IMG/VR virus record: IMGVR_UViG_3300028800_000005
Span: 1-64,000 of that record
Length of the DNA: 64,000 bases
Origin: a virus
Direction: 5' to 3' (one strand)
Positions 4,444-17,545 of the stretch are shown here, one piece after another; the stretch's first letter is position 1; every line of letters begins with the position of its first letter. The notes under the pieces are model-generated. The model was not told where the DNA came from and did not search any database. It saw only the letters and a program-made list of their open reading frames with translations. Made by a program: the position numbers and the translations under genes.

Positions 4444-4983
4444 ATGGAAGAAAAACTCTGCCCAAAGTGCAAGCGCAAGCTACCCGTAGACAGGTTCTCG
4501 AAGGACAGCCGACGTAAGGATGGACATCAGCCGTACTGCAAAGACTGTAACAAGGTGTACTACGACGAGCACCACGATACTATACTTGCAGGTAGAGCGA
4601 AATACTACCGGGATACCCTATACGACAGGCTAACCTGGCAAGCCGAGTACCGGGCCGAACATCGACCATCCGCTATCGCCGCCGCGAGATTTTGCAATAA
4701 AGGAATTACAGCGGAGCGGTACCAGGAAATGTGGGATGAACAAGGCGGCTTGTGTGCCATCTGCAAGAAGCCGGAAACGGCAATGGTGCACGGGACCCTA
4801 AAGCAGCTAGCAGCAGACCATGATCACTCCTGCTGCCCTGGCAGAAAATCCTGCGGTAAGTGCTTTCGCAAGCTGCTATGCTCCCACTGCAACGTTGCCC
4901 TGGGAATGGTTCACGACGACATAGAGGTTCTGGAGAATATGATCGAATACTTGAAGACCTCAAAGCGAGCATGGTCGAGGTAA
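4444..4983 (+). CDS. Endonuclease VII-family (His-Me) free-standing endonuclease
   Basis: N-terminal CxxC...KDG...CxxC module; QGGLCAIC...DHDH...C.RKLLCSHCNVALG. Confidence 0.88.
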   Translation: MEEKLCPKCKRKLPVDRFSKDSRRKDGHQPYCKDCNKVYYDEHHDTILAGRAKYYRDTLYDRLTWQAEYRAEHRPSAIAAARFCNKGITAERYQEMWDEQGGLCAICKKPETAMVHGTLKQLAADHDHSCCPGRKSCGKCFRKLLCSHCNVALGMVHDDIEVLENMIEYLKTSKRAWSR

Positions 4984-11487: not shown

Positions 11488-11849
11488 TGGCCACAGTTAA
11501 CCCGGGTAATAGCGGCGGTGTCCGTACGGATACCGGCGCTACCTCGGGGTCCACGGGACTAGCTACGATAACGTTCGCGACTAAGTACGCGGCTGTCGAG
11601 GTGAAGAACCTAGACGGGACGAATCCCCTGTACATCACCACGGGCTCAGTTGCCGCCGCTGTCGGCGGGGGTAATGACGAGTACGTCGCTGGCCCGGGGG
11701 AGCGCGTCCTGGTTCCGAACAATGTCGAGCTGTGGTGGCAGGGCTACGGCGGCATCGACGGTACCCTCGTTAATCCCGGAACGACCGTGAATATCGCCGC
11801 CATCGACAACCACACCGCTAGCAAGTTCGAAGTCAACGCAACCTGCTGA
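11487..11849 (+). CDS. Hypothetical beta-rich virion protein
   Basis: Translationally coupled ORF with phage-like codon usage. Confidence 0.65.
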   Translation: MATVNPGNSGGVRTDTGATSGSTGLATITFATKYAAVEVKNLDGTNPLYITTGSVAAAVGGGNDEYVAGPGERVLVPNNVELWWQGYGGIDGTLVNPGTTVNIAAIDNHTASKFEVNATC

Positions 11850-11863
11850 TAGGAAGAAACAAA

Positions 11864-12283
11864 ATGGCTTTTGACCAGGACAAGGTCTCCCCTCTCGGCC
11901 CGGTTATCCTGCCGCCCGAGCGCCAGGGCACCACGTACGAGGCTAAGGGTGCTCCGAATGCCCCCGGCGGGCGCGGTCCCCTGCGCTTCGAGTCCGGCAC
12001 CGCGACTGACACGGACGTTCCGAGTGAGTTCGTGAACGGCATCCGGCAGGGCTATGAGACGGCCCCCGGCCGCCCGAACAACAACAAGAACGTTTTCGAG
12101 AAGTGGCCCGAGGAGACTGTCCGCGAGCGTGCCCACATGGGTTCCTCGGCCTGGACCTCCGCGCCCACGATGCTTGGTGACTTCGCTGAAGGCGCGGGCA
12201 CCGAGGCTGAGCAGAAGTACGTGGAGATCGACAGGACCGGTTCCTCGTACATGCGGGTCAACCCGGCGCGCGTCACCGATTGA
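11864..12283 (+). CDS. Conserved virion-associated protein of actinobacterial myoviruses
   Basis: RGPLRFE.G.ATDTDVP..F and ERAH.GS..W..AP motifs recalled from the pre-portal region of related phages. Confidence 0.6.
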   Translation: MAFDQDKVSPLGPVILPPERQGTTYEAKGAPNAPGGRGPLRFESGTATDTDVPSEFVNGIRQGYETAPGRPNNNKNVFEKWPEETVRERAHMGSSAWTSAPTMLGDFAEGAGTEAEQKYVEIDRTGSSYMRVNPARVTD

Positions 12284-12292
12284 TCCAGGACG

Positions 12293-12556
12293 ATGGTCGA
12301 CTTCAACGACCGCCGCCCGAATGCCGACCCTGATCCTGACGACTACGAGCGGCCACTGACACGCCAGACCCTGACGGAAGCTAACCGACGTTTCCGCCAG
12401 ACTGGCGTTCAGGCAGTTATTCACACTGACCCGAAGACCGCCGATAGGATAGTGCGCAGGAGCATAAAGGAGAGATTCAACTCTCGCCGCAAGGGGCTCG
12501 AAGATTTCGATTCAGTCGGGGCATACTTGGACTACCTAAAGGGGCAGGTGACGTGA
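12293..12556 (+). CDS. Hypothetical protein
   Basis: SD AGGA, coupled to next gene. Confidence 0.6.
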   Translation: MVDFNDRRPNADPDPDDYERPLTRQTLTEANRRFRQTGVQAVIHTDPKTADRIVRRSIKERFNSRRKGLEDFDSVGAYLDYLKGQVT

Positions 12557-12849
12557 TGCTGGCAAGCGCAGTCACCGCGTTGCTTAGCTGGCCCTACGGT
12601 CTTGGCCTGATCACTAACATCGCAGCCAGTATCGTTTGCGCCGTTGTCGGATGGTTCTGGCTGCTGAGGAAGATTCACTGCTCGGAGCCACATTGTTTCC
12701 GCCCGGGACGGCACCCGGTTGAGGGGACAACGTTCCGCACTTGCCAGAAGCACACCACGCAGGAAGTTCATGAGCGCCTGCACAAGGTGCACGCCGAGAA
12801 GTTCCCGGAGCAGCACGCGCACCTGAATTCCGGGGCAGCTAATGGCTGA
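12553..12849 (+). CDS. Small membrane protein with Cys/His-rich tail
   Basis: Hydrophobic N-terminal half, then HC....C.R.GRHP......C.KH. Confidence 0.65.
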   Translation: MMLASAVTALLSWPYGLGLITNIAASIVCAVVGWFWLLRKIHCSEPHCFRPGRHPVEGTTFRTCQKHTTQEVHERLHKVHAEKFPEQHAHLNSGAANG

Positions 12850-13173: not shown

Positions 13174-13798
13174 GGTTACAAAGAGCTGCTACACCTGCAA
13201 GCAGGATAAGCCCTTGTCGGACTACCAGAAAAACAAGGCTAAGAAAGACGGCCTGGAGCATCGCTGCCGCGCATGCAATAATGCTCGCATCCGAGCTGCG
13301 TATGCCAAGGACCCAGCTAAGAAGATTGCCGCCACACGCCAGTATCATTTGGATCACCCAGAGTGGTCCAAGACAGTACTACGTGAGTGGCACGAGCAGA
13401 ACGCTGAACGACGTTACCAGGAATATCTGGAGCGGGGCAAAGACCCCGAAGTTGCTGCTAAGCGCCGGGACGCCTCACGCCGGAGTGAATCCAGGCGGCG
13501 TGCCTTGATGGCTGGCGGCACCCTAGTAGATCACATTTCATCAGACGACCTTGATAGGGTTCTAGTAGAATACCAAGGGCGTTGCTGGATTTGTCACGTC
13601 GACCTGGCAACTGTTGACCTTCATTGGGACCACTATAAGCCTCTGGCGAAGGGCGGTGAGCACACGTTGGCTAACCTACGGCCTTCGTGTTCCGACTGCA
13701 ACGTCAGAAAGAATAGTATCTGGCCATTGACCGAGGAGCGTCTAGACGCAATTCGGCGCGCGGTGGGAATACTGCGCGAACCTAAGGAGGTGATGTAA
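13166..13798 (+). CDS. HNH endonuclease (free-standing, homing type)
   Basis: N-terminal CxxC...KDG...CxxC; CWIC...HWDHYKPLAKGGEHTLANLRPSCSDCNVRK. Confidence 0.92.
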   Translation: MAEVTKSCYTCKQDKPLSDYQKNKAKKDGLEHRCRACNNARIRAAYAKDPAKKIAATRQYHLDHPEWSKTVLREWHEQNAERRYQEYLERGKDPEVAAKRRDASRRSESRRRALMAGGTLVDHISSDDLDRVLVEYQGRCWICHVDLATVDLHWDHYKPLAKGGEHTLANLRPSCSDCNVRKNSIWPLTEERLDAIRRAVGILREPKEVM

Positions 13799-13802
13799 GA
13801 CA

Positions 13803-15550
13803 ATGTCTATCGACTTCCCCAGTGCCAGCATGCGTGCGGCCGGTGGTGATCTGGCGATTCAGGTGTCTCCTCTCGGACTTATTGATATCTCCGAAGAGGA
13901 GTTCTTACCTTCGAAGTTCACGGTCCCCGGGTCATTAGGTACGCTAACAATTGGGCGTTCTATTTGGGCCATCACTGGATGTACAGGAAAAATGCGGGTG
14001 AACCGCAACTAACGTTTAACCACGTTAGGGCATTGTCCTTAGCGTCCGACTTCATGACGAACTTCACGTTCTCAAAGGGCGTGACGTTCAAAGTCAACAA
14101 GATGTTCCAGCACATCACCCCGGCCCTGCTCGGCCGGATCTTTGACAAGGACAATAACCGGCAGCAGTTCCTGTGGTCGATCGGGCAGCAGGGCGGGGTA
14201 TCCGGCGACTGCTTCGTCAAGGTAGCGTACGCTGAGCCAGGTACTGAGGCCGCTGACCCGATGACCGGCGCTGGCCGTGTCATGCTGATGGTCCTGCAGC
14301 CGTCACACTGCTTCCCCGAGTGGCACCCTCACCTCCCCGGCAAGATGACCAAGTTCACCATGAAGTACAAGTTCTGGGGAACGCAGCCGGACGGTACACG
14401 CGTGGTTAACACGTACGTCGAGGAAATCACTGACGACACAATCAAGGAATACATTAACGACGAGCTGTTCCGGGACGACCAGAACCCGCTCGGGCGTATT
14501 CCCGTTGTCCATATCGCGAACGTCCCGGTCTCCGGTTCCCCGTGGGGACTCTCGGACATCGACCAGATCATTCCGATCAACCGGGAGTACAACGAGAAGG
14601 CCACCGAGATATCGGACATCATTAACTACCACGTGTCTCCTATCACGGTAGTCACTGGCGGCCACCCGCCGAACCTTGAGCGCGGGCCCGCTAAGATCTG
14701 GGGCATCGGGAACGAGAAGGCTAGCGTCTTCAACCTAGAAGGCGGGACCGCTGGCCTTGCTCCCGCGATGGAGTACCTTGAAGTTCTCCGGATGCGGATG
14801 CATGAGTACGGCCACGTCCCGGCAAACGCCCTGGGTGAGCCGCAGCCGATCTCTAATACCTCCGGTGTCGCGCTGGCAATTCAGTACATGCCAACGATGC
14901 AGCACTACAATCTCAAGAAGGTCCAGTACAGCACCGGCCTGAAGGAGATCGCCCAGCTATCGCTGATGACCCTGTTCCTCAAGGAGCCTGAAACCGTCCA
15001 GTACGACGAGTACACGGACGGCATCCTTGACGAGACACTAGGCCAGCAGCCAACCCTCAGTCCTAAGGACCCGGCCGTTTACGACCTGGAAGTCGAATGG
15101 CCCGCGCCGCTGCCAGTAGACATCCTGATCAAGCTGAACGAGATCCAGCAGAAGATGGAACTCGGACTGGAGTCACGCAAGGGCGCGATGCGGGACCTCA
15201 ATGAGGAGTACCCGGACGAGAAGCTCCAGGAGCTTCGCGAGGAAATGATGCAGGACGCCAAGTGGGACGCTGAGCTGCGTATTTTCAATTCGCAAGTAGC
15301 GGCTGCTATCATGGCGTTTACTGGGGTAATTCCCCCGGACCAGGGAGAGCCAGTACCACCGGAGTCACCTGAGCCAGGGAGTAACAGCCAGAGCGCTAAC
15401 GCACCACAGCAGGTTACGGCACAACAGCCCACGCTGCCAGCCGGTCTGCAAAAGGTGCAGGACGCGATGATAAATGAGCTAGTGACGAACGCCTTCTCAC
15501 CGAGGGTCCCGCTCCGGCGGAACTTCGATACGAACGACACGAACTCATGA
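13803..15550 (+). CDS. Portal protein, split across two frames (join 13803-13904 with 13913-15550), probably by programmed ribosomal bypass
   Basis: Strong SD GGAGGTGA before ATG 13803. Joined sequence reads MSIDF...SPLGLIDISEEEF/EVHGPRVIRYANNWAFYLGHHW. Downstream SPP1-type portal motifs NPLGRIPVVHIAN...WGLSDI and SNTSGVAL. Located before scaffold and capsid. Confidence 0.88.
13902..13912 (+). other. Candidate bypass site 1: take-off TTC, hungry TTA, landing TTC (8-nt gap)
   Basis: GAG GAG TTC|TTA CC TTC|GAA GTT CAC. Confidence 0.75.
14036..14047 (+). other. Candidate bypass site 2: take-off TCC, hungry TTA, landing TCC (9-nt in-frame gap)
   Basis: GCA TTG TCC|TTA GCG TCC|GAC TTC. Confidence 0.65.
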
Positions 15551-15608
15551 CAGAACAACACAGGTAAACATCGGGGCTTACTCGGAGAACCAGACCGCAA
15601 AGGAAATC

Positions 15609-16490
15609 GTGAAAATGAACAAGAGCAGCACCCCCGGGACCATCATTGGTTACCGAAAGAACGGGTCACCGATCCGCCTGATTGCCGGTGGGTCCGACAC
15701 GGGGCAAGAGCCGCTAGCTCCGGTTCAGGAGCCGACCGTCCCCGTCACCGGGTTCTCCCAGGACCAGCTTTACGCGGCGATGGAAAAGGCTCGCAGCGAG
15801 GAGAGGGCGAAGCTCCATACCCGCCTGGAAAGCATGCAAAGCAATTTCAGTTCGCAGGAGGAGCTTCTCAAGGAACTGAAGGCCAAGGAAGACGAGCGCG
15901 CTGCTGCCGCTGCCGCCGAGGCTGAGCGCCTGGCTGCGGAGCAGAAGGCGGCCGAGGAAGAGAAGCTTTCCCTCCGGCAGATCATGGACAAGCGCGAGCA
16001 GGAGAACACGGCTAAGTTCCTGGAGCTGCAGCATGAGCTTCAGCGCCGTGACGCGATTATCCAGAAGGAGCGCGAGCGCGCCGAGCTAGACCTATACCGG
16101 GAGCGTGCCGTCGCCGCTGCCCGGGAGCCCCGTCCCGACCAGAACCACTTTGGTATCGCGGACGAATTCATTGACCTGGTGCAAGGGAGTACTCCCGAGG
16201 AGATCGATAACAGCGTCGCTAATATGGTGGCGCGAACTCGGAGTATCCTGGAAGGAGTGCAGCAGGCGCAGTTGAATGCGCAGGCTCGCATGCCGGGCGT
16301 TTCTCCTAACGCTGGGAACTTCGGGCCAGTGGAAACCGCTGGATCAACCCGGCAGTACTCAGGGGAAGAGATCGCTGCGATGGACCCGAACTCCCCGGAG
16401 TTCCAGGCCCTTCGCACACAATATGGCATGGGCCGTTCAACAAGCAACCGAGGCATGTTCGGAAACTCGAACCAAGGTTACTTCGGCTAA
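15609..16490 (+). CDS. Capsid scaffolding protein
   Basis: Highly charged coiled coil between portal and capsid genes. Confidence 0.8.
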   Translation: MKMNKSSTPGTIIGYRKNGSPIRLIAGGSDTGQEPLAPVQEPTVPVTGFSQDQLYAAMEKARSEERAKLHTRLESMQSNFSSQEELLKELKAKEDERAAAAAAEAERLAAEQKAAEEEKLSLRQIMDKREQENTAKFLELQHELQRRDAIIQKERERAELDLYRERAVAAAREPRPDQNHFGIADEFIDLVQGSTPEEIDNSVANMVARTRSILEGVQQAQLNAQARMPGVSPNAGNFGPVETAGSTRQYSGEEIAAMDPNSPEFQALRTQYGMGRSTSNRGMFGNSNQGYFG

Positions 16491-16543
16491 AAAGAGAATG
16501 GTCGGCAAATGTTCCGGCCCAACAACACTCAAGGGAGTGACAC

Positions 16544-17545
16544 ATGGCAGGAAGTGCCATCGTCGGGACTAACTTTCTAGCTGCGGCTCCGACCGCCTAT
16601 CAGGGCGCGAACACCCAGCTTACCCCGGCCATTCAGACTTTGTGGTCCAAGGAAATCCTTTTCCAGGCCATGCCCATTCTGCGCTTCGAGCAGTTTGCGA
16701 TCAAGAAGACGGAGCTTAACCAGGCTCCCGGGACCACGATTAACTTCATGCGCTACAATAACCTGCCTGCGGCTTCGCAGCTCGTTGAAGGCGTCCGCAT
16801 GGAGACGACCCCGCTTACCGCGTCGCAGTTCTCGATCACCGTTGCTGAGCACGGCATGGCCGTCGCCACGACCGAGTTCCTCCTGAATGCCTCGTTCGAC
16901 GACGTCATGGCGTCGGCGGCCCGGCTTCTCGGCCGGAACATGGCCCTGTACCTGGACGCGTCCGCGCGGGACACCCTGCTGCAGGCCAGCTCGATCCTGT
17001 ACGGCTACAACAAGCCCGCTCTTGCCGGTAACATCCGGTCGGACCTGGCCCCCTACTCGCACGGCGTGCCCGCTGCGAACCGCGCGGCTCTCTCGGCCGG
17101 TAACTTCGCTCTTACGACCGCCATGGTCAAGGACGCGGTCCTGACCCTGGAGTCGAAGAACACGCCTCACCTTGGCGACGTTTACCCGACCTTCATCCAC
17201 CCGGCGCAGTCGCGGCAGCTTCGTGACGACCCCGAGTTCATCGAGGTCTCGAAGTACTCCCAGCCGGGTAGCTTCATGCTCGGTGAAATTGGCAGGTACA
17301 ACGACGCGGTCTTTATCACCACGACCCAGGTCGCTCCGAACTACGTCTCCGGCAGCTCCGGCGCGCAGTACCACGACGGCATCATGATCGGTGACAACGC
17401 CTTCGGACATGCCATCTCATTGCCGGTCGAACTTCGCGATTCGGGCATCTTGGACTATGGCCGTGAGCACGGCCTGGCCTGGTACGGGATCTGGGGCTTC
17501 GGCCTCATTACCGACCAGAGCGTCGTCATTCTGGAAACCAACTGA
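16544..17545 (+). CDS. Major capsid protein (N4 gp56-like/HK97 fold)
   Basis: WSKEILFQAMPILRFEQFA, PG.TINFMRY.NL, GEIGR, LAWYGIWG; SD GGAG; strong terminator follows. Confidence 0.92.
   Translation: MAGSAIVGTNFLAAAPTAYQGANTQLTPAIQTLWSKEILFQAMPILRFEQFAIKKTELNQAPGTTINFMRYNNLPAASQLVEGVRMETTPLTASQFSITVAEHGMAVATTEFLLNASFDDVMASAARLLGRNMALYLDASARDTLLQASSILYGYNKPALAGNIRSDLAPYSHGVPAANRAALSAGNFALTTAMVKDAVLTLESKNTPHLGDVYPTFIHPAQSRQLRDDPEFIEVSKYSQPGSFMLGEIGRYNDAVFITTTQVAPNYVSGSSGAQYHDGIMIGDNAFGHAISLPVELRDSGILDYGREHGLAWYGIWGFGLITDQSVVILETN

Follow-up and report, generated by a model that had tools for sequence, protein, structure and literature searches.

An in-frame TTA-led gap in the portal gene of an uncultured soil phage as a candidate site of short translational hopping

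The portal gene contains two TTA-led elements

The virus record IMGVR_UViG_3300028800_000005 is a complete genome of 112,017 bp with direct terminal repeats and a G+C content of ~60%, which was assembled from a metagenome and represents an uncultured soil phage. The stretch analysed here, referred to as the window, comprises positions 1–64,000 of this record. It contains a gene for a portal protein of the SPP1 Gp6-like type (PF05133) that is split across two reading frames: the ATG at 13803 opens an open reading frame (ORF) of 69 codons, and the long portal frame is open from 13886 to 15550. Two short elements of the same build lie in the gene, TTC TTA CC TTC at 13902–13912 (site 1) and TCC TTA GCG TCC at 14036–14047 (site 2), the latter within the long portal frame. 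When site 2 is read through the sequence is RALS-LAS-DF; when TTA GCG TCC is skipped it is RALS-DF. A first, sequence-only reading had pointed out both elements, and its coordinates, its translations of the two sites and the spacing of 134 nucleotides (nt) between the take-off codons were all correct on re-reading of the sequence. A short translational hop over the gap, of the kind proposed for the terminase gene of phage phiHau3, is strongly suggested, since stop-led inserts, some of them in frame, are found in relatives at both of these sites and at four more. The reading we favour as probable is that site 2 is a 9-nt hopped coding gap marking the 3′ edge of a mobile cassette of ~1.2 kb, which would consist of an HNH endonuclease gene and 76 portal codons (Table 1).

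The nearest cultured relatives of the portal protein are found in the Streptomyces phages BRock, GiJojo and pSt2308 (~50% amino acid identity); a megablast search of the portal region against cultured phages gave no match. Metagenomic relatives reach 89% amino acid identity (protein P0005). Since segment B offers no early start codon, it can be entered from upstream only.

Table 1. Features of the portal locus in the window. All positions refer to the window.
Feature	Positions	Strand	Evidence and remarks
Left part of the window-specific segment missing in the nearest gap-less relative, L005	12828..13165	+	blastn against L005
Free-standing HNH (His-Me finger) endonuclease gene, 210 amino acids	13166..13798	+	PF01844, E 1.2e-8; phrog_1035, E 1.4e-29, and many HNH phrogs
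Portal segment A, codons 1–34, ending with take-off codon TTC (13902–13904)	13803..13904	+	translation fits homologue N-termini
Site 1 coding gap: TTA CC and landing codon TTC, 8 nt, frame-changing	13905..13912	+	not in L005, BRock or GiJojo DNA; L009 has TAG C TTC there
Portal segment B, 42 codons, ending with take-off codon TCC (14036–14038)	13913..14038	+	no start codon before 13964
TAA stop of the 69-residue dead-end product expected if the site 1 TTA is decoded	14010..14012	+	ORF 13803–14012
Predicted 9-bp hairpin, ACGUUAGGG (14022–14030) paired with CCUUAGCGU (14037–14045, the gap itself)	14022..14045	+	absent in gap-less L010; z −0.7
Site 2 coding gap: TTA GCG and landing codon TCC, 9 nt, in frame	14039..14047	+	absent in homologues; counterpart of L009 TGA A TCC
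Portal segment C, 500 codons and stop, SPP1 Gp6-like	14048..15550	+	PF05133, E 3.3e-15; 89% amino acid identity to P0005

Both gaps are absent from uninterrupted homologues

Compared with the DNA of the gap-less relative L005 (82% identity), the window has 8 additional nt at 13905 and 9 at site 2, and no other comparable insert is present in the remaining ~9 kb of the alignment. At the protein level we surveyed the first 120 database homologues, 114 of which cover site 2. The sequence-only reading had predicted a three-residue insertion at exactly this point of a portal alignment, and this is what we observed: the three residues are missing in all 114 homologues, none of which carries three residues here encoded without TTA, and there is no insertion or deletion within 12 residues on either side. 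The homologues run uninterrupted through both junctions (...EEF-EVHGPR... and ...RA(L/F)S-D(F/Y)...).

The same reading had suggested that the additional residues might disrupt a portal helix. In the AlphaFold model of P0005, site 2 does fall within a predicted helix (P0005 residues 62–75), but at a predicted local distance difference test score (pLDDT) of 45–60; over the N-terminal 70 residues the model stays below a pLDDT of 50–60. That three extra residues would be harmful is therefore argued more strongly by the indel-free alignment.

As the record is a metagenome assembly, the two elements might be a sequencing or assembly artefact. We regard the likelihood of this as close to nil. Logan contigs from four rhizosphere runs show not a single difference from the window: those of three runs (X1, X2 and X3) span both sites and those of the fourth (X4) span site 2. 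These run data consist of contigs, from which rare gap-less variants of the window lineage could escape; no RNA run was listed as containing the stretch. Moreover, an artefact would neither start twice with the rarest codon of the genome nor recur at homologous sites in other samples.

TTA is avoided elsewhere in the genome

By itself, the motif XYZ-TTA-N(0–12)-XYZ is common by chance, being present at 86 of the 406 TTA trinucleotides on the + strand of the window (~21%) and at 137 of the 539 on the − strand; its context is not. Of all codons of the genome, TTA is used least, at 13 of 31,309 codons in a crude gene set; usage of TTG (92) and the ratio of CTA to CTG would predict ~16. Each of the 12 TTA codons outside the portal cassettes either precedes a better start codon that has a Shine-Dalgarno sequence or lies in a frame that the true gene overlaps. 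As later starts or other frames account for these 12, the two TTAs of the portal gene are probably the only in-frame ones of the 112-kb genome, with the crude gene model leaving room for one or two genuine TTA codons. The only transfer RNA (tRNA) gene of the genome is for Asn, and its TTA avoidance resembles that of the cultured Streptomyces-infecting relatives of the phage.

A scan of the whole genome for a codon followed by a stop or TTA and the same codon returned 16 hits, among which no further gap was accepted. Three TTA-led hits were off the coding frame by translation. The other 13, all stop-led, were judged from their sequence context either to mark ordinary junctions between genes or to be out of frame.

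Related portal genes carry a series of stop-led and TTA-led gaps

Among ~190 loci we found 12 gaps in 10 distinct contigs, which occupy six sites, all within portal codons 34–76. Every gap immediately follows the last conserved codon and has TAG, TGA or TTA as its first zero-frame triplet. The gaps are 4–10 nt long, all frames being represented, and once a gap is deleted, the conserved protein is restored exactly in every case. The final triplet of each of the seven longest gaps repeats the take-off codon or is synonymous to it, and no cognate triplet occurs earlier downstream; the other gaps end with a near-cognate landing codon.

L009, a relative with 71% amino acid identity from another metagenome, is interrupted at the same two sites as the window, TTC[TAGC]TTC-GAG and TCT[TGAA]TCC-GAA, and its portal gene passes through three frames. 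Further gaps follow N47 in L047 (AAC[TAGC]TGG) and L184 (AAT[TTAC]TGG), A49 in L092, which is identical to L093 (GCT[TGAATAAGCT]TTC), L52 in L032 (CTT[TGACTT]GGC), and H55 in L107 (CAT[TGAAT]TGG), L013 (CAT[TAGCTC]TGG) and L019 (CAT[TAGCAC]TGG). The gaps of L013, L019 and L032 are in frame, yet they cannot simply be read through because each contains a stop. The two TTA-led bearers (window and L184) have portal genes without any other TTA; in six of the seven stop-led bearers TTA is in ordinary use for Leu.

Two general explanations of the series were rejected. Reassignment of stop codons is ruled out by the single in-frame stop in each portal gene of the relatives, which lies inside the insert. 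Frameshifting by ±1 is ruled out as a general mechanism by gap lengths of 4–10 nt that cover all frames; it would also add residues at junctions that are free of insertions and deletions, and it leaves the repeated codon unexplained.

Between the window and L009, the proportions of nonsynonymous (pN) and synonymous (pS) differences are 0.05 and 0.60 in segment A (34 codons) and 0.04 and 0.68 in segment B (42 codons), indicating that both segments are under strong purifying selection. Because pS is 0.60–0.68 and pN only 0.04–0.05, the comparison implies that both gaps have outlasted near-saturating synonymous divergence while each segment remained coding in its own frame. These values bear on the idea of a defective allele, in which the inserts kill the portal gene and the protein is supplied by a co-resident gap-less relative. 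Such a relative does exist, as an insert-less phage of the L010/L005 type has 3–5 times the depth of the window phage in the same four runs. We nevertheless consider a defective allele very improbable: purifying selection acts strongly on all three coding segments in the comparison of the two gap-bearing genomes (pS 0.60–0.68), the downstream frame of 500 codons is intact, the layout of the gaps is kept despite changes in their sequence and length, and gaps of this kind recur across many samples, in 10 distinct contigs.

The series also bears on plain read-through, according to which the host decodes TTA and site 2 encodes a tolerated Leu-Ala-Ser insertion. As a variant of this reading, site 2 may be the leftover of a stop-led gap that is now in frame, or a mark at the DNA level that entails no recoding here. 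The gap keeps the frame, a frameshifting 7-nt version such as that of L009 could be neutralised by a change of TGA to TTA plus 2 nt, and an insertion might be tolerated in an N-terminal region that is modelled with low confidence. We judge read-through, together with its variant, to be rather unlikely. Site 1, 134 nt upstream, gives portal protein only if its TTA is not decoded; TTA is avoided elsewhere over ~31,000 codons; none of the 114 homologues has an insertion or deletion within 12 residues of site 2; the in-frame gaps of the relatives contain stops and so cannot be read through; and the perfect TCC/TCC match has been kept.

The gaps also affect database annotation. Among the top 20 database homologues, nine have an internal Met as their first residue (MYRK..., MTNFTF..., MFQHI...). 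The truncated starts of P0017 and P0023 are explained by the gaps of L009 and L093, and P0006, P0011, P0014, P0015 and P0020–P0022 probably contain gaps as well. Gene callers thus truncate or split such portal genes, and an in-frame gap escapes them altogether.

Two observations on other portal genes of the family are of a different nature. In L016, a TAG at 4703–4705 replaces a conserved Ser (SPWGL-S-D, at about portal residue 245) by substitution, with no insert; a nonsense mutation, an error and a read-through site are all conceivable, and the case differs in kind from the N-terminal gaps. The close portal homologues P0012 and P0013 have 895–907 residues, ~330 above the usual length, which may reflect fusion with a downstream gene or another recoding event.

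Gap-bearing portal genes with available upstream DNA are preceded by a nuclease gene

The HNH gene upstream of the portal gene has a G+C content at third codon positions of 0.60, compared with ~0.78 in the neighbouring genes. It ends 5 nt before the portal ATG, and the portal Shine-Dalgarno sequence sits in its 3′ end. At 13783–13805 the HNH gene terminates with ...AAGGAGGTGATGTAA. Because the portal gene takes its ribosome-binding site from the nuclease 3′ end, translation of the two genes is probably coupled. In the blastn comparison with L005, window positions 11508–12827 and 13809–17543 align; between them lie 981 nt of the window, including the HNH gene, as against 173 nt of L005.

Presence of a nuclease gene and presence of a gap go together. 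A gene for a His-Me finger nuclease (HNH or endonuclease VII) abuts the portal start in all seven gap-bearing loci for which upstream DNA is available, versus none of 58 gap-less loci. The abutting ORFs of L009, L013, L032 and L107 match HNH families (phrog_374/3377, E 1e-35 to 1e-51), and those of L092 and L184 match endonuclease VII (PF02945).

The identity between the window and the gap-less L010 rises from 76.8% over 13803–14047 to 86.9% over the 245 nt that follow, positions 14043–14102 having only 3 mismatches; the identity to L009 shifts the opposite way, from 82.2% to 74.3%. Because the identity to the gap-less relative jumps at site 2, this site looks like the 3′ edge of a mobile cassette that comprises the nuclease gene and its own portal 5′ segment, a small-scale counterpart of T4 mobA/gene 60.

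Portal genes of this family appear to be hit often by selfish elements. In the distant relatives L106 (749–1660) and L107 (3152–4096), the portal gene is interrupted midway, near residue 165, by an in-frame insert of ~0.9 kb (304–315 residues); that of L106 contains a LAGLIDADG_3 domain (E 6.6e-6) and is probably an intein with a homing endonuclease.

The link to a nuclease gene has to be set against a regulatory explanation, in which the TTA pair is selected mainly as a sensor of a bldA-like tRNA-Leu(UAA), confines portal synthesis to vegetative cells, and sharpens the switch by acting in series. For the phiHau3 terminase with its two UUA gaps, the same idea has been put forward (PMC10732093). 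Such a gate is compatible with hopping and differs in the reason that it gives for the gaps; decoding of the site 1 TTA would lead to the 69-residue product, and the nearest cultured relatives infect Streptomyces. The homologous and neighbouring gaps of the relatives, however, use TAG or TGA and are unable to sense tRNA-Leu, the gaps track the nuclease gene (7/7 versus 0/58) and the recombination edge, and an in-frame site is unable to switch synthesis on or off. A role in the choice between lysis and lysogeny is unlikely as well, given that we take the BRock-type relatives of this phage to be lytic. We hold a gate as the main reason for the TTA pair to be quite unlikely, and a tandem-gate purpose to be less likely than an origin as part of a cassette.

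A proposed short hop at the edge of a putative nuclease cassette

According to the favoured reading, in which site 2 is a hopped gap at the cassette edge, peptidyl-tRNA-Ser would occupy UCC 14036–14038 with UUA in the A site, where the latter would not be promptly decoded if the host, like those of the Streptomyces type, has little or no tRNA-Leu(UAA). The peptidyl-tRNA would leave UCC, the messenger RNA would slip by 9 nt, and re-pairing would take place at UCC 14045–14047. Decoding would resume at GAC to give the canonical ...RALS-DF... portal protein of 576 residues. Site 1 would be passed in the same way, from UUC to UUC (+8), a step obligatory for any portal synthesis that would create the junction EEEF-EVHGPR. 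Conditions that allow portal synthesis should also favour the hop at site 2, because a ribosome in the portal frame would already have hopped a UUA at site 1. Ribosomes that decode UUA at site 2 would yield a portal of 579 residues, with additional Leu-Ala-Ser, as a minor product. The two forms would be told apart by the peptide across the junction, ALSDFMTNFTFSK after a hop and ALSLASDFMTNFTFSK after read-through.

At the DNA level, the gaps would probably break the target of the adjacent or a related nuclease and thereby protect the allele that bears them, whereas gap-less relatives would be cut and converted, as in the T4 mobA/gene 60 system.

Several points weigh against this interpretation. 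We infer the hop from sequence alone, and as site 2 preserves the frame, plain decoding as Leu-Ala-Ser would also give a full-length protein. The short hops that Weiss and co-workers described in synthetic systems in 1987 were reportedly inefficient. The mosaic signal rests on ~240 nt and is moderately supported (Fisher p 0.004). The nuclease genes of the window and L009 show no sequence relationship, although both gap sites are common to the two genomes; nuclease and gaps would therefore be separable modules, and the link between nuclease and target indirect. The gap-less co-resident relative could in principle supply the portal protein. Finally, RNA structure had to be dropped as evidence for hopping, as no statistically supported stimulatory fold was obtained: folding of 13 gap contexts revealed no common structure, and the z-scores were mostly not significant (−0.7 for site 2 of the window, −4.4 for L092 and −2.0 for phiHau3 g7/8). 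The 9-bp hairpin at site 2 and a GAGGAG that in the window, as in L009, immediately precedes site 1 on its 5′ side are suggestive as candidate hop stimulators, neither being statistically supported.

Just upstream of site 2 (within 13930–14035), the window contains the rare codons AGG and TTG (GTT AGG GCA TTG), which are shared with L009; the gap-less L010 has CGC GCG CTT at that place. The predicted folds of the window and L009 both have AGG-G paired with the take-off and slow codons.

As an extension of the cassette reading, the cassette may have been co-opted, the gaps both protecting the allele from homing nucleases and tying portal output to the tRNA-Leu(UAA) state of the host, with the in-frame gap giving rise to two portal forms, with and without Leu-Ala-Ser, whose ratio reports this state. 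We put this forward tentatively and regard it as unlikely. If it is true, the first 80 codons of SPP1-type portal genes would constitute a natural test bed with dozens of short hops, from which the rules of peptidyl-tRNA re-pairing could be set. The 12 gaps found here, which lie in one conserved region and are built differently (TTA-led or stop-led, in or out of frame), in any case form a ready mutational series for the rules of take-off and landing, and the link to a nuclease gives such gaps an evolutionary reason.

Comparison with known bypassing systems

In the searchable literature, natural short bypasses were found only for T4 gene 60 and its relatives, yeast mitochondria, and three terminase genes of Streptomyces phages or prophages; our search found no paper joining bypassing and portal proteins. 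Within that literature, site 2 is the first in-frame UUA gap found.

In bacteriophage T4, a 50-nt bypass in gene 60 is associated with a mobA homing endonuclease cassette (Bonocora et al. 2011, as cited in PMC5009743; Manning and Atkins, bioRxiv 10.1101/2022.08.31.505936). As in T4, a free-standing HNH gene lies just 5′ of an interrupted essential gene and is present only in gap-bearing genomes, a diverged 5′ part of the target gene is carried along with the gap at the 3′ end of the element (identity break at 14047, moderately supported), and the take-off and landing codons match. The window differs from T4 in that its gap comprises 5–6 nt plus the landing codon rather than 50 nt, that two gaps are present per gene, and that the rare sense codon TTA replaces the UAG stop after the take-off codon, the window's relatives having TAG or TGA. 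In addition, the folds at the window gaps are not significant, in contrast to the take-off stem-loop and the nascent-peptide signal of T4.

The gaps also resemble synthetic 'stop-hops', in which a stop is surrounded by a pair of matching codons and whose natural short-distance counterparts have long been presumed (review PMC5009743). Stop-hops and hops at hungry codons in E. coli have been described by Weiss et al. 1987, Kane et al. 1992, and Gallant and Lindsley (all as summarised in PMC5009743). In both cases matched codons flank a slow codon, 9–12 nt specify a single amino acid, and re-pairing is independent of the frame; L019 (CAT TAG CAC) and L032 (CTT TGA CTT) are natural copies of the design. 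Unlike the synthetic hops, which are artificial or depend on overexpression and have low efficiency, the portal gaps occur in natural phages and are conserved within essential genes.

Programmed bypass elements, or byps, are known from the mitochondria of Magnusiomyces capitatus (Lang et al. 2014). Like the portal gaps, byps are numerous short, mobile, non-coding inserts that are skipped in essential genes, several being possible per gene. They differ from the portal gaps in that they are reportedly 27–55 nt long, belong to mitochondria, rely on other signals and are not known to have a nuclease gene next to them.

The likeness is most extensive for the large terminase gene of phiHau3 (g6/g7/g8), which has two UUA-led inserts of 10 nt (Antonov et al. 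2023, PMC10732093). Their bypass when tRNA-Leu(UAA) is lacking was first proposed by Smith et al. 2013 (as cited in PMC10732093). UUA-led terminase gaps have been described in phiHau3 and two Streptomyces prophages; the full-length phiHau3 product was seen in Streptomyces, and in E. coli, with UAA replacing UUA, the junction peptide was found by mass spectrometry (PMC10732093). Streptomyces phages are usually without any UUA (PMC10732093). Read directly from the phiHau3 DNA, the two inserts are GGC[TTACTCCGGT]AAG and TCT[TTAACGGTCC]ACG, with take-off/landing pairs GGC/GGT and TCT/TCC, a layout as in the window.

As in phiHau3, UUA lies directly 3′ of the take-off codon in the window (TCC TTA, 14036–14041), homologues, in which the flanks are contiguous, lack the insert, and the take-off tRNA is cognate to the landing codon, which immediately precedes the resume codon (TCC...TCC, the first cognate triplet downstream). 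Both phages have two gaps in one essential late gene and a genome otherwise without TTA codons, here according to the crude gene model. In contrast to phiHau3, whose bypassing has experimental support, the hop in the window is predicted from its sequence. The window gaps measure 8 and 9 nt as opposed to 10 or 7 nt; site 1 (8 nt) does disrupt the frame, but site 2 (9 nt) is in frame and would not cause early termination on decoding, a type of gap not described for phiHau3. The gene concerned encodes the portal protein instead of the terminase and belongs to an unrelated BRock-like lineage with a genome of 112 kb, relatives have stop-led versions at the same sites, and the gaps are linked to a homing-type nuclease gene. 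What is new relative to UUA bypass of the phiHau3 type is thus the portal gene, the preserved frame, the stop-led homologues and the link to a nuclease.

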